The notes under the pieces: model-generated | Told to the model about the DNA's origin: nothing | Databases searched by the model: none | The model's input: the letters and a program-made list of their open reading frames with translations, nothing else | Translations under genes and position numbers: made by a program | Shown here: piece by piece, positions 627-61,574 of the stretch | Layout: every line of letters starts with the position of its first letter | Position numbering within the stretch: the stretch's first letter is position 1 | Assembly: GCA_039804205.1 (NCBI GenBank) | Contig: JBDRZY010000003.1 | Location: 23,857-87,856 of the forward strand | Length of the DNA stretch: 64,000 nucleotides | Direction of reading: 5' to 3' | Source of the DNA: a candidate division WOR-3 bacterium | Lineage (GTDB): Bacteria > Hydrothermota > 32-111

Positions 627-3600
627 ATGAGAAAAATATCTCTATTTATTCTTTTATCTTTATTTACAATCGCTGTTTTTTCAGCTTCCTTTAATTTAAG
701 AACTCCAAATGGAAATGAGAATTATATAGTTGGAAATCAGATGCCTATACACTGGGATATTACTGGAAGTGCCGCATCAGCAAGATTGGAATATTCAATC
801 GATGGTGGTACAAACTGGGTTTTAATATACAGTTCAACACAGAATGATGGAGATTATCTCTGGACAGTTCCGAACAATCCTTCACTTACATGTAAAATAA
901 GAATTTCAAATCCATCAGATCCAAACGACTTTGATGTTAGTGATACTTTTTTTGTTATATCAAGACCTGAGATATTTATTAAAAAACCAGTTCAGAATGA
1001 TATTCTTATTATCGGAGAAAATTATCCGATCCACTGGGATTGGACAGGTGTTTTTTCAAATGTAAAACTTGAATACACAACTGACGGTGGCACAAACTGG
1101 ACGGTTATTACGAGTTCTACTCCAAACGATGGAGAATATATTTGGAGTGTTCCTAACTTTCCATCAACTCAGTGTAAAATAAGGATAACGAACACTACCG
1201 ATCCAAACTCTTTTGCTGTAACTGAAAACACTTTTACCATCGCAAACAATAGTTTAACTTTGATAACTCCGAATGGTGGAGAACAGTACATTACAGGGAA
1301 ATATTATCCGATATACTGGCTTTGGAGTGGATCTTTTACAAGTGTTAAACTTGAATATTCTGCTGATTCTGGAAACATCTGGAACAGTATAACAACTTCA
1401 ACCACAAATGATGGAAGTCATAACTGGTTGATTCCTTCGATAAATCCATCATCAAAATGTTTACTGAAGATTACGAACGTTTCAAATCCAGCTGTTTATG
1501 ATATATCCGATTATCCTTTTTCAATACTTTCAACTTCCCTTACTCTTTTAACACCAAATGGAGGCGAAACTTTTGTGGCTGGGACAAAAGCGAACATAAG
1601 TTGGGATTGGGAAGGGTCTATCGCTAATGTTAAACTGGAATATTCATCTGATGGTGGAGTGAACTGGAACTCTATAACAACATCTACAGCATGTGATGGA
1701 AGTTATCTATGGACTGTTCCGAATATTTCAACGAACAATCTTTTAATAAAAATAACAAATGTTAACGATGTGAACTGTTACGATATTTCAAATTCCCAAT
1801 CAAGTATAGTGACAGCACAGATAGATATAACTTATCCAAATGGTGGTGAACAGTTGATAGTTGGCGAAAAGTATCCTATAAACTGGAATTGGAGTGGGTC
1901 GTTTGCTAATGTGAAGATAGAGTATTCTACCAATAACGGTTCAAGCTGGTCGACAATCGATGCTTCAGATCCGAATGATGGTTCTTTTTTCTGGACTGTT
2001 CCTATAACACCATCATCTCAATGTCTTATAAAAATCTCTGATGCTGCAAATTCTTCTGTTTATGATATATCCAATTTTTCTTTCACGATAAAAAAACCTG
2101 AAATAAAGATAATCAAGATCAATGGGAATGATACACTCATAGCTTCAAACAAATATCCTATTGTCTGGCAAACAGAGGGAACCATTTCAAATGTTAATAT
2201 TGAATATTCAACCAACAATGGAACAACATGGAACACTATTGTAACAAATACTCCAAATGATGGAAGTTATGTCTGGACTGTTCCCTCAACACCATCTTCA
2301 AGTTATCGTTTGAAAATCATAAATTCTTCAGATGTGACATCGTACGATATAAGTGATACAACTTTTGTTGTAAAATCACCTCAGATAAACCTTATATCAC
2401 CTAATGGTGGCGAGACATATAAAACTGGAGAAAAGTATCCCATTTTATGGAGCAGCAATAGCGATTTTTCATCTGTAAATATAGATTATTCTTCCGATAA
2501 CGGAACAACATGGAACTCGATAGTTTTATCTGAAACCAATGATGGTTCATATGTCTGGAATGTTCCTTCAAATTTAACTCCTTCAACAAATTACAGGGTA
2601 AGGATAAGAAATAGCTCTGATAACAATTCTTTTGATATTTCTGATAACACATTTACAATCTCCTCACCTTCTATAAAAATTATATCTCCAGATTCAGGTG
2701 TTTCACTTCTGTCTGGAGAAAAAGTTTCAATAAATTATACCTATGATGCAAATTTTCCTAATGTAAAAATTGAATATTCAGAAGATAATGGTTTGACATG
2801 GAATGTTATTACTAATAGTACTTCAAATACTGGAACTTATATCTGGACCATCCCTAACTTAAATTCAAATGATTGTTTCCTAAAAGTTTTAAATTTGTCT
2901 GATACATTGAATTCCTTTGCTGTTTCAAAAAAATTCTCTATTTCCAAACCAACGATTACGATTAAATCACCAAAATCAAACGATTCACTTTTGGTAGGAA
3001 ATGTATATCAAATTGTATGGATCAATAATGGAGAAATCTCAAATGTTAAAATAGAATATTCTACCGACAATGGCTCTACATGGAATATCATAGTTAGTTC
3101 AACTGTCAATGAAGGTTCATATTACTGGACAATACCTTCAACAATAAGTTCAAATGTTTTAATAAAAGTTTCGGATGTTTCCGATCCTTCTAATTATGCT
3201 GTTAGTGCGAAATTTTCAATCATACCTGCCCAAATTACAATTGTTTCTCCAAACGGTGGAGAAACTGTGATTGCTGGTGAATATTTCCCAATAGAATGGA
3301 ACTGGATAGGTAGTTTTTCTTATGTAAAACTTGAATACTCAACAGATGGTGGATCAACATGGAACAAAATTGTTAATTCTGATACTTTAAATGATGGTTC
3401 TTTTATATGGGCTGTTCCTTCAACAGCAGTCAGTTCAAATGTCCTTTTTAGAGTTTCAAACAATCAGGATCCAACAAACACTTTTGATATTTCCAATGGA
3501 GTTTTTTCAATAGTTTCTCCTTCAATCACCATCATCTCTCCTAATGGAGGGGAGAGTTTGGTTGGTGGAGAGGTTTATCCAATCAGGTGGAGAAGTCAGG

Positions 3601-6600
3601 GTGCTTTTGCAAATGTTATGATAGAATATTCAACAGATGGAATAAACTGGATTTCAATAGATCCCTCAGATCCAAACGATGGTGTATTCAACTGGACGGT
3701 TCCTTCTATTGTCTCTTCGAATGTAAAAATTCGATTAACAAGTACAACCGATGGAAACACTCAGGATATTTCTGATAACAACTTTTCAATAGTATCACCA
3801 AATTTAACCATACTGTCACCCAACGGTGGAGAAAATTTTGTTTCAGGTGATATTTTACCTATCCACTGGAAAAATAATGGAATAGTTTCAAATGTAAAAA
3901 TTGAGTATTCAACAAACAATGGTAATACATGGAATACAGTTATTTCGTCAACCACAAATAATGGATATTACAGATGGACAATACCTTCGCTTGTAGTTTC
4001 AGATTCTGTAAAATTAAGAGTTATAAGTACATCAGATTCTCTAACAAAAGATATAACTGACGGATTGGTTTCTATTAAAAGACCAACGATAAAAGTTTTA
4101 ACCCCAAATGGTTCTGAAAATTTGACTGTAGGAGAATATACTCCAATTCACTGGGAAAATGATGGCCAATTTTCAAATGTTAAAATAGAGTATTCAACTG
4201 ATGGGGGAACAGTCTGGAAAACTATTTCATCTTCAGAAACAAATGATGGTAATTATATCTGGAAAGTTCCGAACGATGTTTCAAACAACTGTATGATTAG
4301 AGTAACAAACACCTCTGATAACCTTTCCTATGACATAAGTGATAACAAATTTTCAATTCTAAAACCTACAGTTTCGATATTCAATCCAGATTCAGCAGCG
4401 GTACTGGTTGTTGGAAACAGATATCCAATTTACTGGAATTGGACTGGAACAGTTGATAGTGTGATCATAGAATTATACTATAAAGTTTCAGGAATCGTTC
4501 AAAGTACATTCATCTCGACAGCGACCTTAAACACGGGAAGTTTTATTTTTACGGTTCCAAATTATGTAAGTGACAGTTGCTGGATAAAGGTTACAAGTAC
4601 CGCAAACGATTCTGTATATTCTTTGTCAAAGGTCTTTTCAATAAAAAGACCAATCTATAACATAGTACAACCAAATGGAGGAGAAAAATTTTATCGTGGT
4701 GAAAAACTTGAAATTAACTGGAACTGGATCGGTGGACCTGATTCTGTTTCATTGTTCTATTCTCTCGATGGAGGATTGAACTACAGTGCAATTTCTACTG
4801 TAAAAAATGCTGGTTCTTATTTATGGAAAGCACCTCATTATTCTTTCAATACATATAAAATCAAGGTCATGTCAACCAAGGATAACTATGCTTACGATGA
4901 ATCGAACAATAATTTTTCAGTGAGTTATCCTATAATGAATATTGATCAACCAGTAGTTGGTGATATATGTTATTATAACAATTATTTTCCAATTTATACA
5001 ACGAACAGGGGATTCATCAATTCTGATTCTGTCTTGATTAGAATAACAAGCAATATTTTGGGAACAAAAAATATTGGTATTTTTCCAATAAATGAATATT
5101 TTACTTTTAAAGATACTTTCACTGATACAATTGATACTATTGAAATCAAGATTTATGATAAAACTGGAACATACCTTTACGATACATCTGATAAAGTTCC
5201 GGTTGTTCAATCTCCTTTGAAAGATACGATACTTTTCCCGAATCAAAACGATACAATGTATGTTGATGAAATTTACTATATAATTTGGAATTCATACTCT
5301 TTACTCCCAAGCGATAGTGTTGAACTTTATTATTCTACAGATGGAATAAATTTCATCAAATATGGTTCCAAAACAGCAAACACGAATTATAGATTGTTCC
5401 CACTTCCTCATAATGCTTCTTCAAATAATTTTATTATCAGGCTTGATTTTTATGATTCCTTAAATATCTTTAAAAAGAGTTTAAACGTAAACAATCTTAT
5501 TGTAAAAAAATCTATTTTTGATCTTGTTTATCCTGATAATACGGATACTCTTTATGTTGGTAGGAATCATAACATAATTTGGAGAACAGTAAAAGGTAAA
5601 CCAACTTCTGTTCAAATATATTACAATACTGATGGAATAACATGGAAAGAGGTAAAGAGTCAGGTTCCAGATACAGGATCTTATTTATGGACGATTCCAA
5701 ATGAACCAACTTCAAACGCTGTAATCAGAATAGAAGAATATGGAGATAATCAGGTAACTGCATATTCACAGAGTTTTGTAATAAAACCGCAGGAAATTTT
5801 TATAACCTCACCTTTATCGAATGATACTTTTGTATCTGGAAGGGACTATCATATAAGTTGGTATAACCTTGGTGGAGTTGATTCTGTAAACATATATTAT
5901 TCAATCGACGGTGGTTCAAACTGGATATATATCGCCAAACAAGTGAATTCCAACTCCTATAAATGGACAGTTCCAAATTATTCTTCCAATAAAGCACTTG
6001 TAAAAGTTGAATTCACAAGAAACAGCAATGTGTTTGGTGTTTCGGATACATTTACCATAATCCCTCAAAACATTTTGGTCACATATCCTGATAGTTCAAC
6101 TATATGGTATGCTGGGAACAAATATTATATAACATGGGATTATACAGGTAACTTTTCAAATGTTAAAATAACTTATTCAATTGATAATGGTAAGAATTGG
6201 AATGTTATCACTAACTCAACAACAAACTCTCAAAACTATCTATGGACTTTACCTCAAATTTATTCAGATTCTGTTCTGGTAAAAGTATCCAATACTGATG
6301 ATACAACAAAGTTTGATGTTTCTTCTCCGTTTAGAGTGATTCCACAACAGATAACAGTAAAGTATCCATTTTCAACTGAAAGTTTGATTTCTGGTAGACA
6401 ATACAACATTACCTGGGTTTACAAAGGACTTTTTGATACATCGATAGTTGAATATTCTACCAACAATGGAATAAACTGGAACACACTCGGTAAAACTCTT
6501 GCATCGAACAGATACTATCTCTGGACAACTCCAGATGTAAAGAGTGATTCAACTCTTATAAGGATAGTCAACAAAGATAATACCTCAATTCTTGGAGTTT

Positions 6601-9600
6601 CAGAATTGTTCTCAATTTCAAATAAAATCATAACGATAAGTTCACCGAAATTAAATGATGAATACATAGTTGGAGAAAAGGCACTGATCACTTTTGATTT
6701 TTTGGGTTCTTCAAACGATTCAGTTATAATTTCATACTCAACCGATGGTGGAACAATATGGACACAAATTGATACGATTCCATCTTCCACTCAATATCTT
6801 GAATGGACTATTCCAAATGTTATAAGTTCAAATTGCTTTATTAAGATAACCTGTTTAAGGTTAACATCATCATCAGCAACAAGTGAAAGATTTTCGATAA
6901 TTCCTCAAACAATAAATGTTACCTCACCTCTTTCAAGTTCAGAATGGATTGCTGGTAGGAAATACTATATAACATGGAATTATACTGGAAGTTTTTCGAA
7001 TGTTGATCTTGAGTATTCAACAAATGGTGGCTCCACATGGCAGACGATCACTACAACAACGAACTCGAAATATTACCTCTGGACTCTACCGAACATCTCT
7101 TCTTCCAATTCTCTTGTAAGGGTGAAAAATAGTTCAAATACTTCTGTATTTGGTGTTTCTCCTATTTTTACCATGAAATATCCATCGATAACTGTTGTTT
7201 CGCCCGGATTATCGGATACTCTACTCTGTGGAAAATATTATTATATTACCTGGTATTCTAACATGGGAAGTGGTGATAGTGTTGTTATTTCTTATTCAAA
7301 GAATGGAGGAACAACCTACACAATCATAGATACCATAAGTGCTACACAAAAATACTTTAAGTGGAAGGTCCCTGAAATCGGAGCAACAAACTGTTTAGTT
7401 AAAGTAACAGGTTATGAATCACCTGTTATTGAGGGGTATTCAAAGCAGTTTGTGATAAAGGATCAATCAATAACCATAACATATCCAGATATAAATGATA
7501 CGATTTTGTCTCTTTCACCTTTCTATATTACATGGGATTATACTGGTGGACTAGATACACTTGTTGGTGAATACTCTTTTGATAATGGTTCAAACTGGAC
7601 TACATTCTCAAATTCAATTGTTGCATCGAATCAAAATTATCTGTTTAATCCTTTCCCGATTTCAAACTCTTTACAGACCCTTATCAGATTGAAAAATAAA
7701 GCGAATGTTCTCGTTCAGGGTGTTTCCAATCAAATTGTAACAGTATATCCAGTAATAGACATAACATCGTTTAAGCCAAATTCATCATTTACTGTTGGAA
7801 GTAAAATATTTATCACATGGAAAAACAATGGTCTTATTGATAAAGTAAACATTTATTATTCTATTGATAATGGAGCAAGCTGGAATTTGATAGTTTCATC
7901 TTATACCAATTCTGGATATTATGAGTGGACTGTGCCCAATTACATATCCGATAGTTGTTTTATTAAAGTCAGTTATACATCTCTTGAAAATGTATATGAT
8001 GTTTCTGAAAAATTTTCTATAATACCTCAAACCATAGTTCTCTTTTCTCCAGTATTCAACGATTCTTTGATGGTGTCAAAAACTTACCCGATAACCTGGT
8101 ATAACACTGGAACAATCGGTAATATAATGCTTGAATACTCACTTGATGGTGGATCAATCTGGAATACGATAACAGGTTCAACAGTGAACAACAAGTATTA
8201 TGAATGGACTTTACCAACAACCTTATCTTCAACTTCGAATGGTTTGATAAGAGTAAGTAATGTCGGAAACCTTAATGTTTTTGATCTTTCTGATAATTTT
8301 AGAATTATACCTCAAAAACTCGAAATAACATATCCAACCTTAAACTCTCAATTCTTTGTGAGTAGAAAATATATAATAACCTGGAAAACAATTGGAACCA
8401 TATCCACTGTTAACCTCTATTATTCTCTGGATAATGGTGCAAATTGGATTTCTCTTGCTTCTAATTTAACAAACAACGGTTATTATGAATGGACGGTTCC
8501 AGATGTTAATTCAAACCTTGTTCTTATAAGGGTAACCAATTCGAATAACGAATCTGTTTATGATGATAGTGAAGTGTTCTCGATCGTTCCCCAACTTGTT
8601 CTTGTTAACTCTCCGATCTCTACAGATAGATGGATAGTTGGAAGAAAATATTTTATAACGTGGACAAATATTGGAACAATTTCAAAGGTAAGAATAGAGT
8701 ATTCATATAATGATGGTGTCAACTGGAACATGGTGGTGGATAACCTTTCGAATACAAACTCTTATGAATGGACGATTCCAAATACACCTTCTGAAAACTG
8801 CTTTGTAAAAGTATCGAATTATGATAATACGAGTGTATACGGAACAAGTTCAAAATTCTCTATCCCGTTACAAACGATAGAGGTTCTTTCTCCAAAAATC
8901 ACAGATGATTATATTTCTGGCAATAAATATTTTATTACATGGAAATATACTGGAACAATCTCCAATGTTGATATTCAGTATTCAAAGGATAACGGAGCGA
9001 CATGGATATATGTGGCAACAGGTGTTGCCAACAATGGTTATTATGAATGGACGGTTCCAACCGAAGATTCTGATAACTGTTTGATAAAAGTTTTGAACAG
9101 TAGTAACAACAATGTTTATGGCGTATCAGAAAGGTTTACAATTTTACCTCAAGATATAACAGTAACATCTCCAAGTTCTTCTGATACGATGATCGCGGGA
9201 AGGAAATACTATATCACATGGAGAAACACAGGTGCTTTTACAAACTGTGATATTTTCTATTCAACGGATCTTGGTTTGCAATGGAGATCAATAGCATCAG
9301 GTGTTTCAAATACAGGTTATTATGAATGGACGATACCTGATATTGGTGTGTCCGACATGGCTTTAATAAAAATATCAAACTCCTCTCAATCAACGATCTA
9401 TGGAATATCAGATACTTTTGTTATTTCAAAACCTGTTGTAAAATTCACCTCTCCTGTTCTAGGAAATGTATTTCAAACAACAAAAAAATACTTTTTAACA
9501 TGGACAACTCTTGGAACTATTTTACAGTACAATCTTGAGATCTCTTATGATAAGGGTGTTTCTTGGATTCAGATTGTTGCAAACCAGAACAATAGCGGGA

Positions 9601-10028
9601 ACTATGAATGGACTGTTCCATCAGGTATGTATTCCGATAGTTGTATGCTTAAACTGACATCAAGTTCAAACAGTTCAATCTATTATTACTCGGATCTGTT
9701 CTCTATAGTCTCATATTCGAACATGGATAACATTTCTGTGTTGAAAAACAAAACCATTAAATATTTTAACACAAAACTCAATAACAGTATGAAAGAGAAA
9801 ATTCTATTTGTGGAGATTCCGGAGGATTGTTATTCTCAAATAGAAATTTTTGATCTTACTGGAAGAAGTGTTGGAAAAATTTATGATGGAAAGATCGATT
9901 CTGGAGTACATAGATTTGAACTTGAAAATTATCTGAACAGTAAGGGAATCTACTTCATAAAAGTTATATCAAAAAAAGATGGAAAAACTCTTTATGAAAG
10001 AAATATTAAAATGTTGAATTTGAGATGA
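627..10028 (+). CDS. giant (3,133 aa) secreted surface protein: signal peptide, ~33 tandem ~88-aa Ig-like modules, C-terminal T9SS sorting domain
   Basis: ORF track. The N-terminus MRKISLFILLSLFTIAVFSAS is a signal peptide. The repeating module consensus is [LI]TSPNGGE..(x)..YPI.W...G...NVK[IL]EYS[TS]DGG.TWN.I..ST.NDGSY.WTVP....C.IK[IV]...D....DISD..FSI, which resembles the Kre9/KNH-like GPI-anchored Ig-fold family. The last ~80 aa (IEIFDLTGRSVGKIYDGKIDSGVHRFELENYLNSKGIYFIKVISKKDGKTLYERNIKML) match the Por-secretion-tail (T9SS CTD) pattern. Confidence 0.85.
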   Translation: MRKISLFILLSLFTIAVFSASFNLRTPNGNENYIVGNQMPIHWDITGSAASARLEYSIDGGTNWVLIYSSTQNDGDYLWTVPNNPSLTCKIRISNPSDPNDFDVSDTFFVISRPEIFIKKPVQNDILIIGENYPIHWDWTGVFSNVKLEYTTDGGTNWTVITSSTPNDGEYIWSVPNFPSTQCKIRITNTTDPNSFAVTENTFTIANNSLTLITPNGGEQYITGKYYPIYWLWSGSFTSVKLEYSADSGNIWNSITTSTTNDGSHNWLIPSINPSSKCLLKITNVSNPAVYDISDYPFSILSTSLTLLTPNGGETFVAGTKANISWDWEGSIANVKLEYSSDGGVNWNSITTSTACDGSYLWTVPNISTNNLLIKITNVNDVNCYDISNSQSSIVTAQIDITYPNGGEQLIVGEKYPINWNWSGSFANVKIEYSTNNGSSWSTIDASDPNDGSFFWTVPITPSSQCLIKISDAANSSVYDISNFSFTIKKPEIKIIKINGNDTLIASNKYPIVWQTEGTISNVNIEYSTNNGTTWNTIVTNTPNDGSYVWTVPSTPSSSYRLKIINSSDVTSYDISDTTFVVKSPQINLISPNGGETYKTGEKYPILWSSNSDFSSVNIDYSSDNGTTWNSIVLSETNDGSYVWNVPSNLTPSTNYRVRIRNSSDNNSFDISDNTFTISSPSIKIISPDSGVSLLSGEKVSINYTYDANFPNVKIEYSEDNGLTWNVITNSTSNTGTYIWTIPNLNSNDCFLKVLNLSDTLNSFAVSKKFSISKPTITIKSPKSNDSLLVGNVYQIVWINNGEISNVKIEYSTDNGSTWNIIVSSTVNEGSYYWTIPSTISSNVLIKVSDVSDPSNYAVSAKFSIIPAQITIVSPNGGETVIAGEYFPIEWNWIGSFSYVKLEYSTDGGSTWNKIVNSDTLNDGSFIWAVPSTAVSSNVLFRVSNNQDPTNTFDISNGVFSIVSPSITIISPNGGESLVGGEVYPIRWRSQGAFANVMIEYSTDGINWISIDPSDPNDGVFNWTVPSIVSSNVKIRLTSTTDGNTQDISDNNFSIVSPNLTILSPNGGENFVSGDILPIHWKNNGIVSNVKIEYSTNNGNTWNTVISSTTNNGYYRWTIPSLVVSDSVKLRVISTSDSLTKDITDGLVSIKRPTIKVLTPNGSENLTVGEYTPIHWENDGQFSNVKIEYSTDGGTVWKTISSSETNDGNYIWKVPNDVSNNCMIRVTNTSDNLSYDISDNKFSILKPTVSIFNPDSAAVLVVGNRYPIYWNWTGTVDSVIIELYYKVSGIVQSTFISTATLNTGSFIFTVPNYVSDSCWIKVTSTANDSVYSLSKVFSIKRPIYNIVQPNGGEKFYRGEKLEINWNWIGGPDSVSLFYSLDGGLNYSAISTVKNAGSYLWKAPHYSFNTYKIKVMSTKDNYAYDESNNNFSVSYPIMNIDQPVVGDICYYNNYFPIYTTNRGFINSDSVLIRITSNILGTKNIGIFPINEYFTFKDTFTDTIDTIEIKIYDKTGTYLYDTSDKVPVVQSPLKDTILFPNQNDTMYVDEIYYIIWNSYSLLPSDSVELYYSTDGINFIKYGSKTANTNYRLFPLPHNASSNNFIIRLDFYDSLNIFKKSLNVNNLIVKKSIFDLVYPDNTDTLYVGRNHNIIWRTVKGKPTSVQIYYNTDGITWKEVKSQVPDTGSYLWTIPNEPTSNAVIRIEEYGDNQVTAYSQSFVIKPQEIFITSPLSNDTFVSGRDYHISWYNLGGVDSVNIYYSIDGGSNWIYIAKQVNSNSYKWTVPNYSSNKALVKVEFTRNSNVFGVSDTFTIIPQNILVTYPDSSTIWYAGNKYYITWDYTGNFSNVKITYSIDNGKNWNVITNSTTNSQNYLWTLPQIYSDSVLVKVSNTDDTTKFDVSSPFRVIPQQITVKYPFSTESLISGRQYNITWVYKGLFDTSIVEYSTNNGINWNTLGKTLASNRYYLWTTPDVKSDSTLIRIVNKDNTSILGVSELFSISNKIITISSPKLNDEYIVGEKALITFDFLGSSNDSVIISYSTDGGTIWTQIDTIPSSTQYLEWTIPNVISSNCFIKITCLRLTSSSATSERFSIIPQTINVTSPLSSSEWIAGRKYYITWNYTGSFSNVDLEYSTNGGSTWQTITTTTNSKYYLWTLPNISSSNSLVRVKNSSNTSVFGVSPIFTMKYPSITVVSPGLSDTLLCGKYYYITWYSNMGSGDSVVISYSKNGGTTYTIIDTISATQKYFKWKVPEIGATNCLVKVTGYESPVIEGYSKQFVIKDQSITITYPDINDTILSLSPFYITWDYTGGLDTLVGEYSFDNGSNWTTFSNSIVASNQNYLFNPFPISNSLQTLIRLKNKANVLVQGVSNQIVTVYPVIDITSFKPNSSFTVGSKIFITWKNNGLIDKVNIYYSIDNGASWNLIVSSYTNSGYYEWTVPNYISDSCFIKVSYTSLENVYDVSEKFSIIPQTIVLFSPVFNDSLMVSKTYPITWYNTGTIGNIMLEYSLDGGSIWNTITGSTVNNKYYEWTLPTTLSSTSNGLIRVSNVGNLNVFDLSDNFRIIPQKLEITYPTLNSQFFVSRKYIITWKTIGTISTVNLYYSLDNGANWISLASNLTNNGYYEWTVPDVNSNLVLIRVTNSNNESVYDDSEVFSIVPQLVLVNSPISTDRWIVGRKYFITWTNIGTISKVRIEYSYNDGVNWNMVVDNLSNTNSYEWTIPNTPSENCFVKVSNYDNTSVYGTSSKFSIPLQTIEVLSPKITDDYISGNKYFITWKYTGTISNVDIQYSKDNGATWIYVATGVANNGYYEWTVPTEDSDNCLIKVLNSSNNNVYGVSERFTILPQDITVTSPSSSDTMIAGRKYYITWRNTGAFTNCDIFYSTDLGLQWRSIASGVSNTGYYEWTIPDIGVSDMALIKISNSSQSTIYGISDTFVISKPVVKFTSPVLGNVFQTTKKYFLTWTTLGTILQYNLEISYDKGVSWIQIVANQNNSGNYEWTVPSGMYSDSCMLKLTSSSNSSIYYYSDLFSIVSYSNMDNISVLKNKTIKYFNTKLNNSMKEKILFVEIPEDCYSQIEIFDLTGRSVGKIYDGKIDSGVHRFELENYLNSKGIYFIKVISKKDGKTLYERNIKMLNLR

Positions 10029-28797: not shown

Positions 28798-29918
28798 ATA
28801 TTCTAATAATCAATTGGAGAGATTTAAAAAATCCTCTGTATGGTGGTGCTGAAATTCATATAACAAAAATTGCAGAGCACCTTGCTAAAAAACATAAAGT
28901 ATTCTTCTTAACATCTGGTTATAAAGGTGCAAAAGATGAATCGATCAACAATGTTTCCTATATACATACCGGAAACGAATTGTTGTTCAACTATTTTGTT
29001 ACCTTTAAAATAAGAGATTTAGTTAAGGAAAAAAAAATAGATCTTATCATAGAGGATATAAATAAAGTTCCATTTTTTACGCCTTTACTTGTTAAGATTC
29101 CAGTTTTCGTTGTGGTACCCCATATTTTTGGAAAAACGATTTTTAAACAAACGAATTTTATTTTTGGAACCTATGTGTATCTTTTTGAAAAACCTATAAG
29201 GATTGTATATAAAAAATCCTATTTTGAGGTTATTTCAAATTCAACGAGAGATGATCTTTTAAAAAGAGGCATAGATGGGAAAAGGATAAAAGTAATAGAA
29301 TGTGGGATCGATAAAAGATTTTTTGGTTATGATTATCAAAAAAAAGAATACCCTCAGATATGTTATGTTGGAAGGTTGAAAAAATATAAATCTGTTCATC
29401 ACCTTATAAAAGCTTTCAAAAAGGTCAAAGAACAATGTAAGGAATGTGTTTTATACATTGTTGGAATGGGAGATTATGAAACTGAGTTAAAAAAATTGGT
29501 TAAAAGGTTAAGGATAGAGGATGTTATTTTTACAGGATATGTTCCTGAACATGAGAAGATAAAAATTTTACAGGAAAGCTGGATATCAGTATATCCATCC
29601 TATATTGAAGGGTGGGGCATAGTCAACATTGAAGCGAACGCACTTGGAACTCCCGTTATTTCATCAAATGTTTTAGGACTCAAAGATTCGGTTAAAGATG
29701 GATTTTCGGGTTTGCTTTATGAATATGGAAATATAGAACAACTTGCAGAGAAAATACTGACTCTTTTAAAGAATCGGGAAAAACTTAAACAGATGGAAAA
29801 TGATGCTAAAAAATGGGCAAAAAATTTTGATTGGGAAAAAACGAACAATCTTTCAGAAGATTTTATTGAAGATTTCATTACAGAAGTTGTAAAATCCAAA
29901 ACTATTGACAACAAATAG
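28794..29918 (+). CDS. glycosyltransferase family 4 (GT-B)
   Basis: ORF track, 374 aa. C-terminal GT4 signature EGWGIVNIEANALGTPVISSNVLGLKDSV (E-x7-E). Confidence 0.75.
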   Translation: MNILIINWRDLKNPLYGGAEIHITKIAEHLAKKHKVFFLTSGYKGAKDESINNVSYIHTGNELLFNYFVTFKIRDLVKEKKIDLIIEDINKVPFFTPLLVKIPVFVVVPHIFGKTIFKQTNFIFGTYVYLFEKPIRIVYKKSYFEVISNSTRDDLLKRGIDGKRIKVIECGIDKRFFGYDYQKKEYPQICYVGRLKKYKSVHHLIKAFKKVKEQCKECVLYIVGMGDYETELKKLVKRLRIEDVIFTGYVPEHEKIKILQESWISVYPSYIEGWGIVNIEANALGTPVISSNVLGLKDSVKDGFSGLLYEYGNIEQLAEKILTLLKNREKLKQMENDAKKWAKNFDWEKTNNLSEDFIEDFITEVVKSKTIDNK

Positions 29919-29940
29919 TTTAATAATTAAAATATATTTT

Positions 29941-59756: not shown

Positions 59757-60098
59757 TCAGATTTTCAATTCAATAAAATTTTTTGCTGAAACGAGATCTT
59801 TTGTTGTGTCGTACACTATATCATAATCAAAGAGCGAAATAATCGTAAGTATATAGGGATCTCTGCATACGATTTTTAATGGTAGACATCTCCTTAAAAA
59901 TAATCTCTTTATCCCTCTTAAAAGTAATCCTATTTTGTAATGTGTATTTTTCAAATTTCTCAAATCTATTATCAGAGGTTTGTTTTGATCCGCCAACATC
60001 TGTAAAGTTTCTCTCAAATTTTTAAGATCGTTTAAATCTATGTTTCCAGTTATTTTTAGGAGAGAATATGATACCTTTTTTTCAAGATAGAGTTTCAT
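59757..60098 (-). CDS. STAS-domain protein (anti-sigma-factor-antagonist-like fold) inserted in dcw cluster
   Basis: ORF track, 113 aa. The pattern LLKITGNIDLNDLKNLRETLQMLADQNKPLIIDLRNL ... LKIVCRDPYILTIISLFDYDIVYDTTKDLVSAKNF matches the SpoIIAA/STAS layout. The usual phosphorylatable DSSG serine is absent (NTHYKIG). Its ATG overlaps the mraZ stop (TAATG) and its stop lies 2 nt before the rsmH ATG. Confidence 0.5.
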   Translation of the reverse strand: MKLYLEKKVSYSLLKITGNIDLNDLKNLRETLQMLADQNKPLIIDLRNLKNTHYKIGLLLRGIKRLFLRRCLPLKIVCRDPYILTIISLFDYDIVYDTTKDLVSAKNFIELKI

Positions 60099-60535
60099 TA
60101 TAAACCTACCTTTTTGAATAGATCAATTTTTTCTGATAAAAGTTTTCTGTTGAACTCTTCATGTATCTCTGGATTCCAGAAATCAAGTTTATCTTTCGCT
60201 CCAACTATTTTTACTTCGTTCTTCAAGTGTGCATGATCCAATAACTGTTGTGGAATTGATATTCTCCAGACAGAATCTCTTACTACCTTTCTTGAGTTTG
60301 CGAAGATTGTATTTATGATGATGCTTTTTTCCTCTTCTGATTCGAGTTTTTCAATTTTTTCTTCAAGTTTCAAAAAGGAAATTTCAGGATAGATATGCAA
60401 AACCTTTTCTCTGCCAGGTATTATGAAGAATACTTTTGAGTTGAGATTCTCTCTGAATACTGATGGAATGATTATTCTACCATTCTCTTCGATGTTAACA
60501 ATTTTAAATCCGATGAATCTCAACTTTGTTTCCAT
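60098..60535 (-). CDS. mraZ: transcriptional regulator MraZ
   Basis: ORF track 60098..60565. The segment FIGFKIVNIEENGRIIIPSVFRE aligns with the MraZ N-terminus ([23 protein letters not shown]). Start moved to ATG 60533-60535 (METK...) for three reasons. It gives a 145-aa product. GGAG lies 4 nt upstream. The longer ORF start would sit directly on the -10 element. Confidence 0.8.
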   Translation of the reverse strand: METKLRFIGFKIVNIEENGRIIIPSVFRENLNSKVFFIIPGREKVLHIYPEISFLKLEEKIEKLESEEEKSIIINTIFANSRKVVRDSVWRISIPQQLLDHAHLKNEVKIVGAKDKLDFWNPEIHEEFNRKLLSEKIDLFKKVGL

Positions 60536-60540
60536 GGTAC

Positions 60541-60575
60541 TCCATTTTTTACCATTTTTTACCATATTTTACCTT
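60541..60575 (-). promoter_or_regulatory. candidate MraZ operator: three and a half direct repeats TGGTAAAAAA with 10-bp periodicity in the mraZ leader
   Basis: Plus strand reads tccatttttt accatttttt accatatttt acc. On the mraZ sense strand this is GGTAAAATA TGGTAAAAAA TGGTAAAAAA TGGA. The repeats lie between the putative -10 and the mraZ RBS. Known MraZ boxes are GTGG-core direct repeats spaced about one helical turn apart. Confidence 0.45.
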
Positions 60576-60593
60576 TTTACTCCATTTTGTCAA
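60566..60593 (-). promoter_or_regulatory. mraZ/dcw promoter (TTGACA-16-TAAAAT on minus strand)
   Basis: Minus-strand TTGACA is the complement of tgtcaa at 60588-60593. TAAAAT is the complement of atttta at 60566-60571. Confidence 0.4.
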
Positions 60594-60615
60594 TAGGAAA
60601 ATTAAAAATTTTTTA

Positions 60616-60643
60616 TTGACTTGGAAAAAAACTTTCTTATAAT
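60616..60643 (+). promoter_or_regulatory. promoter of the M23 peptidase gene (TTGACT-16-TATAAT), divergent from the mraZ promoter
   Basis: TTGACT at 60616-60621 and TATAAT at 60638-60643. ATG is at 60651, which implies a very short leader. Confidence 0.4.
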
Positions 60644-60650
60644 AAATTTT

Positions 60651-61574
60651 ATGAAAAAAAGAATTTCGATAATATTACACAACGAGTATATTTCTTCCGG
60701 TAAACCTGTAATTCTCAGTTTTGAAGTTCAAAAATTAAAAATATTCTTTTTAACTTTATCTTTTCTTCTCTTGTTTTCTTCGTCAGTTCTTGTGTTCTCG
60801 TTTGTTAACAATCTGAATCCCGAATCTCTAATTGAAATCTATTCGAAAAGAGATTTTTACATTTCATCGATTACAAAGAATCTGAATATTCTTGAGCAGA
60901 ATATCCAGAAGATGAATGTGTTGATAGATTATGAAAAAAAACTTAGAATTCTTGCAAGTCTTGATCCCTTATCAGACGATATAAGGCAACTCGGTCTTGG
61001 TGGTTATCAGATAGAGGATTCAAGGTTTAAAAAATTTGATCCTCTAACAAAAAGGTTGATAACAAATGTGGATCAAAAAATTATGCACCTTGATAAGGTT
61101 ATAGATTTCGAAAAAAAGAACTTTTCAAAAATAGAAAACGCACTTCAGGAAAAATATAACCTTTTAAAACATACTCCATCAATAGTTCCAACGAATGGAA
61201 CGATCATGAGTGGTTTTGGATACAGGCTGGACCCATTTACAAAAACACCTGAGTTCCATACTGGTCTTGATATAGCCAACCAGTCTGCTCCTCCAATTTA
61301 TGCTTCAGCAGATGGAGAAGTTATCTTTGCTGATTATTTGCCTGGATATGGAAAAACATTGAAAATCGATCATGGTTATGGATATATAACAGTTTATGCA
61401 CACCTCAATTCTTTTAAGGTAAAAGTTGGTGATAAAGTAAAAAGGCATCAACTTATCGGTTATATGGGTAGTACTGGAAGATCAACCGGTACACATCTCC
61501 ATTATGAGGTTAGGATAGCCAACGATAAAGTTAATCCTTTGAATTTCATCGATTTTGATTCTATTGTTGAATAG
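60651..61574 (+). CDS. M23 family metallopeptidase (LytM domain) with N-terminal coiled coil, EnvC-like
   Basis: ORF track 60621..61574, which opens at a TTG. ATG 60651 is the likely start (MKKRISIIL...). LytM motifs: HTGLDIA ... DHGYGYITVYAHL ... GSTGRSTGTHLHYEVR. Confidence 0.8.
   Translation: MKKRISIILHNEYISSGKPVILSFEVQKLKIFFLTLSFLLLFSSSVLVFSFVNNLNPESLIEIYSKRDFYISSITKNLNILEQNIQKMNVLIDYEKKLRILASLDPLSDDIRQLGLGGYQIEDSRFKKFDPLTKRLITNVDQKIMHLDKVIDFEKKNFSKIENALQEKYNLLKHTPSIVPTNGTIMSGFGYRLDPFTKTPEFHTGLDIANQSAPPIYASADGEVIFADYLPGYGKTLKIDHGYGYITVYAHLNSFKVKVGDKVKRHQLIGYMGSTGRSTGTHLHYEVRIANDKVNPLNFIDFDSIVE

Follow-up and report, generated by a model that had tools for sequence, protein, structure and literature searches.

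A likely variant MraZ operator in the promoter of the dcw cluster of a candidate division WOR-3 bacterium

Described MraZ operators and the WOR-3 locus

The E. coli promoter Pmra reportedly carries three TGGGN direct repeats with 5-nt spacers, through which the dcw operon is said to be auto-repressed, a finding attributed to Eraso et al. 2014. Repression of the mra operon of B. subtilis depends on three GTGG[A/T]G repeats (bioRxiv 10.1101/2022.02.09.479790). The structure of an MraZ-DNA complex was solved only in 2026 (PMC12957436). The operator of M. genitalium, for which the cryoEM structures 9R4J and 9SZ7 are available, consists of four AAAGTGT-N3 boxes, each occupied by one MraZ subunit, and the transcription start lies inside box 1 (PMC12957436). 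The TG(T/G) bases of these boxes are read by Lys13, Arg15 and Arg86; Lys13 touches the T:A pair and, at box 1, also the G ahead of it, and the K13A substitution abolishes binding (PMC12957436).

The locus described here comes from a stretch of DNA of 64 kb, referred to below as the window. An open reading frame at 60098..60535 of the minus strand (stop codon included) matches the MraZ family (Pfam PF02381, E = 3.8e-19) and would encode 145 aa beginning METKLRF. The gene is the head of a complete and co-linear dcw cluster that extends on the minus strand from 60535 down to 44413. After mraZ come a 113-aa STAS-like ORF, rsmH, an 85-aa FtsL-like ORF and the gene of a class B penicillin-binding protein, and the order continues with murE, murF, mraY, murD, ftsW, murG, murC, murB, a 204-aa ORF, ftsA and ftsZ. 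Many neighbouring genes of the cluster overlap or abut. A spacer of 115 nt separates mraZ from a divergent gene for an M23 peptidase. Near-identical loci are present in metagenome-assembled genomes labelled candidate division WOR-3, “Acetofilamentum sp.” and “TA06 bacterium 32_111”, while WOR-3 and Candidatus Stahlbacteria are among the labels of a subgroup whose MraZ is 61-63% identical. An Rfam scan of the 64-kb window returned no RNA family.

The STAS-like ORF is an unusual insertion for a dcw cluster. It lies between mraZ and rsmH at 59757-60098 of the minus strand, with an ATGA overlap with the mraZ stop codon. Of five clade members, four matched the STAS domain weakly (best E = 6.8e-5, short of the Pfam threshold), and a PDB profile search gave only marginal matches (E about 0.2), with anti-sigma-factor antagonists and MlaB-like chains. 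All WOR-3 loci keep the ORF, including the sister loci whose MraZ is of the Lys type, whereas the other phyla examined lack it.

The segment 60531-60593 of the minus strand likely comprises the dcw promoter and a variant MraZ operator, repressive in effect and placed ahead of a 145-aa MraZ. By sequence the element is homologous to the known MraZ operator; we file it as a variant on account of the first letter of the box and the Lys of the protein, neither of which is canonical here. The canonical box reads GTG(G/T), and in the window the TGG core is present with the leading G absent. The likeness to E. coli Pmra lies in the TGG core and the 10-nt period, whereas the box differs (TGGG there, TGG(A/T) in the window), as do box number and the way in which the boxes overlap the promoter. 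With Pmra of B. subtilis the window shares a TGG core followed by A or T. That promoter, however, has three GTGG[A/T]G repeats with 4-nt spacers, while the window has six boxes with A or T in place of the leading G, its -10 element lies inside the array, and the array runs on into the ribosome-binding site and the start codon. The window unit AAAATGG-N3 has the same layout as that of M. genitalium (AAA, one base, TG, G/T, N3), and in both the promoter is so near that the transcription start, predicted in the case of the window, coincides with the first canonical box. Position four of the unit, G in M. genitalium, is A or T in the window, and the two MraZ proteins are only about 30% identical.

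A further comparison is provided by L093 and L094, two WOR-3 sister loci of the Lys type with the same gene order and an MraZ 34-39% identical to that of the window. In both, TTGACA-17-TAAAAT stands at the same place, and three boxes and an ATGG start in phase with them come directly after it; as in the window, an M23 gene diverges from mraZ and a STAS-like gene follows it. The sister boxes are GTGG-ATGG-GTGG and the DNA-reading loop of the sister MraZ is D-x-K-G-R, whereas the window clade has ATGG-ATGG-WTGG and the loop E-E-N-G-R.

The promoters, the box array and the start of mraZ

The preliminary description of the 115-nt spacer had placed a consensus-like promoter on each strand and a GGAG 4 nt before ATG 60535, and all three features were recovered. 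On the mraZ-sense (minus) strand, the -35 hexamer TTGACA (60593-60588) and the -10 hexamer TAAAAT (60571-60566) are separated by 16 nt and together fit 11 of 12 consensus positions; the GGAG lies at 60543-60540. The promoter of the M23 peptidase gene (60616..60653, plus strand) consists of TTGACT at 60616-60621, 16 nt, TATAAT at 60638-60643, again an 11/12 match, and 7 nt to the ATG at 60651. Matches of this quality are not rare in DNA of roughly 30% G+C, with 7 observed in the window versus 5.75 expected. Two of the seven sit back to back in the 115-nt spacer, each facing its gene, and both are conserved in relatives despite diverged spacer sequences.

Downstream of the -10 TAAAAT, the minus strand reads ATGGTAAAAAATGGTAAAAAATGGAGTACCATGG. 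Transcription usually starts 7 nt from the -10 element, and from this distance the mraZ start is predicted at about 60559. A transcript from this position would have a 24-nt leader, in which the GGAG would act as the ribosome-binding site for ATG 60535.

Among 13 distinct WOR-3 relatives, the M23 promoter has kept both of its hexamers unchanged between diverged spacers, and the ATG of the M23 gene follows the -10 by 6-10 nt with no ribosome-binding site in between. This points to an M23 peptidase mRNA that may be leaderless or nearly so. A second leaderless candidate in the window is TTGACA-17-TAAAAT at 29905-29933 of the plus strand, followed by ATG 29941. We considered whether the M23 promoter shares the mraZ operator. 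The stretch 60594-60615 lacks any TGG, and over 30 nt separate box 1 from the M23 -35; direct co-regulation of the M23 gene by the operator is therefore not indicated, and its promoter is not counted as part of the operator.

The repeats of the mraZ leader had been described as three copies of one unit. Two exact copies of TGGTAAAAAA are indeed present (60564-60555 and 60554-60545), but the copies flanking them are imperfect, and the phased series is longer than first described. Six WTGG-type boxes in exact 10-nt phase extend along the minus strand from 60585 to 60531, wrapping around the -10. Box 1 (ATGGA, 60585-60581) lies inside the -35/-10 spacer, exactly 20 nt upstream of box 3; box 2 (AAGGT, 60575-60571), degenerate but in phase, abuts the -10; box 3 (ATGGT, 60565-60561) contains the ATG that has been called as the start of a 155-aa protein; box 4 (ATGGT, 60555-60551) would fall in the predicted 5' UTR; box 5 (ATGGA, 60545-60541) overlaps the ribosome-binding site GGAG; and box 6 (ATGGA, 60535-60531) is formed by the start codon ATG (60535-60533) plus GA. 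Relative to a start at 60559, the T positions of the six boxes are at -25, -15, -5, +6, +16 and +26, with the start codon at +25.

By definition, an MraZ operator should have at least three direct repeats at a 10-bp period (4-nt box plus 6-nt spacer). The window has four consecutive exact TGGs at this period and, beyond them in the same phase, a GG at -10 nt and a TGG at -20 nt. Tandem Repeats Finder reports a period-10 array of 3.7 copies at 60542-60578 with 88% matches. The pattern TGG-N7-TGG-N7-TGG occurs three times in the 64-kb window versus 0.10 expected from dinucleotide shuffles; two of these triples are the operator array, and the third lies within an ORF of 3133 aa. The only phased-TGG sites in the window apart from the array, at 8434 and 8714, are this third triple and one two-box match; both are inside this ORF and were taken as chance. 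The ORF itself occupies 627-10028 of the plus strand, and 5 nt ahead of its ATG stands a GGAGG ribosome-binding site.

With ATGG boxes in place of GTGG, the predicted 5' UTR acquires two upstream AUGs, at 60555 and 60545 of the minus strand. Each begins a short ORF out of frame with mraZ and overlapping its start, namely MVKNGVPWKQS* and MEYHGNKVEIHRI*.

Where mraZ begins is closely tied to the reading of the array. The preliminary description had preferred the METK start at ATG 60535 to the longer frame from ATG 60565, and the sequence comparisons support this choice, that is, a protein of 145 aa (60535-60098) and not 155 aa. ATG 60565 abuts the conserved -10, starting one base after this invariant hexamer at about -6 relative to the predicted transcription start; with a start near 60559, the transcript would therefore not contain it. 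The alignment of the N-terminus with homologues, which had been suggested as a check, places the two nearest outgroup proteins, P0011 (39% identical) and P0012 (34%), residue by residue on the short form: both have 145 aa, begin ME[SE]KYSFKG and align from 1-145 to 1-145. In canonical MraZ proteins, 3-6 residues precede the conserved F-x-G. The arrangement of GGAG, 4 nt and ATG is invariant among relatives, and its spacing is shared with other operon-first genes in the window.

It could be argued, on the other hand, that the 155-aa ORF is real, with the repeat encoding an N-terminal peptide MVKNGKKWST and transcription starting further upstream. Almost all public copies have been called at 155 aa, no relative has a stop in this frame, and an (A/G/C)GG stands 6 nt before ATG 60565. 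We did not accept the open frame as evidence for the long start, for only codons 6 and 10 of the extension could become stops without destroying a box. Across relatives the extension reads M[VE]KNG[KLVRA][KN]W[SR][TNIF]. Its constant residues are M, N, G and W, for which TGG or GG bases code, and K3, which comes from the conserved A-tract, whereas codons 6 and 10 vary radically (K/L/V/R/A and T/N/I/F). The long form would also place 16 residues before F-x-G, against 3-6 in canonical MraZ and the nearest outgroups, and it would begin directly after an invariant -10. As for transcription from further upstream, there is no conservation upstream of the -35, and in one relative (L008) the next gene starts about 35 nt upstream of it. 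Taken together, these points make the 155-aa protein distinctly improbable. A TTG at 60523 was also considered as the start of mraZ and set aside, as it is not conserved as a start in relatives.

The 145-aa reading thus corrects the start of mraZ, and it gives a name to a protein called “hypothetical protein” in WOR-3/Stahlbacteria records. The public records (P0001, P0171 and P0172) give 155 aa, mostly as “hypothetical protein”; the 145-aa call was seen in one cluster member only, P0176. A systematic mis-annotation of the public start is probable, the operator being readable as an open frame.

Conservation of the leader within and beyond the clade

Twelve distinct leaders from WOR-3 relatives were available for the clade comparison. 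Their consensus, in a 10-nt register, is CTATTGACAAA aTGGA...Aa.aGGTAaAAT ATGG..AAAA ATGG...AAA.TGGAG.a.. ATGGA. Conservation starts abruptly at CTATTGACA; the CTATTGACAAA at the -35 is invariant in 12 of 12 leaders, and GGTAaAAT at the -10 is conserved in all WOR-3 relatives, with TAGAAT in L005. Every TGG is invariant in the 12 leaders, box 2 keeping GG only, while the bases after the boxes vary. Box 1 has an invariant TGGA in all 12, even though sequence between promoter hexamers usually drifts; the base at the T position of box 2 varies among relatives (A/G/C); box 4 has an invariant ATGG followed by TAA, ATT, AGT, TAG or AGC; box 5 is an invariant WTGGAG; and box 6 is in phase and invariant.

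It is worth considering what each of these boxes may owe to other constraints. Judged from the alignment, the conservation of boxes 1, 3 and 4 is unexplained by the promoter hexamers, the ribosome-binding site or the start codon. That of boxes 2, 5 and 6, in turn, could be due entirely to what they coincide with, namely the stretch just ahead of the -10, the ribosome-binding site and the start codon: box 2 could be kept for promoter reasons instead, and box 6 is, at the sequence level, inseparable from the coding constraint (Met-Glu/Asp).

Between the window and the group with 61-63% identical MraZ, the 64-nt promoter-operator stretch is 78-86% identical, compared with 65-71% for the first 210 nt of mraZ coding DNA, 33-51% for mraZ third codon positions and 35-48% for the 70 nt further upstream. 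The operator would thus be conserved more strongly than the coding DNA of the gene that follows it, a clear phylogenetic footprint in the aligned sequences.

A scan of a genome collection provided 72 further mraZ loci from Nitrospirota, Bacillota, Bacteroidota, Ignavibacteria and others. The Lys-type set drawn up for comparison has 73 distinct leaders, 71 from other phyla plus the WOR-3 sisters L093 and L094, and in 70 of the 73 the start codon is closely preceded by three or more boxes that keep an exact 10-nt phase. A representative Lys-type array, GTGGtaaaaaGTGGtagaaaGTGGagg...ATG, is like that of the window, ATGGtaaaaaATGGtaaaaaATGGagt, except for the first letter of each box. The occurrence of the same array ahead of mraZ in so many leaders supports the proposal of the preliminary description that the repeats are the MraZ operator, as far as sequence can tell. 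A search for the opposite, relatives whose leaders lack phased TGG repeats, was also carried out as an attempt at refutation and failed; the relatives do carry them. In the Nitrospirota, the third box, GTGGAGG, doubles as ribosome-binding site much as box 5 does in the window, but the promoter lies wholly upstream of the boxes, whereas in the window the two are interleaved.

Box 3 of the window corresponds to the first canonical GTGG box of L093 and L094. L093 has a box 1 as well, at 21 nt upstream of box 3, but L094 has none, and box 1 is therefore probably auxiliary.

The same comparisons bear on whether the repeats are an MraZ site at all. Tracts of A5-6 at 10-nt spacing are expected to bend DNA, and the repeats might be phased A-tracts that curve the promoter, or else the site of another regulator. 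However, it is the TGGs that are the invariant letters, while the A-tracts are only partly conserved; the same pattern of box and spacer stands before mraZ across phyla in which MraZ binding is proven; and the box variant tracks a change in MraZ itself, as described in the next section. We regard either possibility as highly improbable. The repeats are very probably, by analogy with the described systems, the sites at which MraZ binds to repress its own operon.

By homology with B. subtilis, M. genitalium and E. coli, each MraZ subunit would place a beta-sheet cradle in the major groove at one box, with neighbours in the opened MraZ ring cooperating to occupy box after box along a single face of the helix. 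Once filled, the array would mask the -10, the transcription start and the first part of the transcribed region, and so keep RNA polymerase out. The outcome would be negative autoregulation of mraZ, the STAS-like gene, rsmH, ftsL and ftsI, possibly on to ftsZ.

The sign of the regulation is uncertain, since M. gallisepticum MraZ was reported to be an activator on overexpression, according to the citation of that report in PMC12957436. MraZ might bind the WOR-3 array as an activator or a dual regulator in the same way, and the location of box 1 upstream of the -10 would be in keeping with such a role. Boxes 3 to 5, on the other hand, cover -5 to +18, a position typical of repression by occlusion, and equivalently placed arrays repress in B. 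subtilis and M. genitalium; either of these roles is, in our view, very unlikely at this locus. If the array is repressive, as proposed above, the promoter-operator logic of MraZ would extend to an uncultured phylum.

The box letter and the DNA-reading residue of MraZ

Phased TGG repeats before mraZ were already known. The new element at this locus is the pairing of A/T-TGG boxes with an Asn as DNA-reading residue. Known PDB chains of MraZ match the window protein with E = 8e-9 to 2e-7. Aligned to M. genitalium MraZ (PDB 9QLR and 9R4J), Asp11 corresponds to Glu16, Lys13 to Asn18, Arg15 to Arg20, Asp82 to Asp87 and Arg86 to Arg91, which identifies the DNA-reading motifs of the window MraZ as E16-E-N18-G-R20 and D87-S-V-W-R91. 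Pfam finds two MraZ stretches in the protein. The DXXXR pattern fits the second motif, while the first keeps the Arg with Glu in place of Asp; two residues before this first Arg, where a base-contacting Lys is canonical, the window protein has Asn18.

The change at this position is a rare one. It was scored in 159 sequences, consisting of the 150 nearest cluster representatives and protein-search matches to the window MraZ. About 135 of the 159 have Lys, and among all those scored, Asn is found only in the window clade and in two further proteins, P0031 and P0037. A metagenome scan for more Asn-type loci yielded one new locus, L089, among the matches listed.

The first letter of the box changes together with this residue. 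In 13 scored leaders of the WOR-3 clade, the base before TGG is A in 33 of 39 boxes, T in 6 and G in none, whereas G occupies this place in 210 of the 229 boxes (92%) scored across the 73 leaders of the Lys type. The two Asn-type proteins from outside the clade belong to loci that also have no GTGG. P0037, with the loop D-S-N-G-R (locus L091), has the boxes AAGG-TTGG-TTGG in the leader aAAGGcaaagaTTGGcagagaTTGGca; P0031, with D-E-N-G-R (locus L090, on a G+C-rich contig), has ATGG-ACGG-ATGG in the leader tataATGGttttcaACGGgtcaaaATGGgagg. Both arrays are weaker than that of the window clade. The Lys-type sisters L093 and L094 are as AT-rich as the window clade and keep GTGG at two of three core boxes; base composition therefore does not explain the change of the box. 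Five other loci (L095-L099), with Arg, Ala or Ser at the Lys13 position, have arrays that are irregular, absent or cut by the contig end, and therefore give no word either way on a wider recognition code.

A switch from Lys to Asn may thus have re-targeted MraZ from GTGG to A/T-TGG boxes; on the sequences at hand, we hold this to be about as probable as the contrary. The M. genitalium structure offers a link between residue and letter, in that Lys13 reaches the G at the first place of one box. The association of Asn with the box letter represents at most three independent events, and that the one change caused the other is what we infer from them. The binding specificity ascribed to the window MraZ is likewise an extrapolation from homologous proteins, with both the leading G and the canonical Lys replaced. 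Nevertheless, matching the first box letter (G or A/T) to the loop residue (Lys or Asn) gives a simple, testable recognition rule that could guide the prediction of operators in other divergent lineages. If it holds true, the change between Lys and Asn would be a natural specificity switch in a beta-sheet DNA reader.

A further peculiarity of the window protein concerns the second motif (residues 87-91, encoded at 60262-60276 of the minus strand), in which a Trp precedes the second Arg. The other two Asn-type proteins are without this Trp. It is found in 8 of 133 relatives, including the window clade, and the residue at this place is Gly in 104 of the 133.
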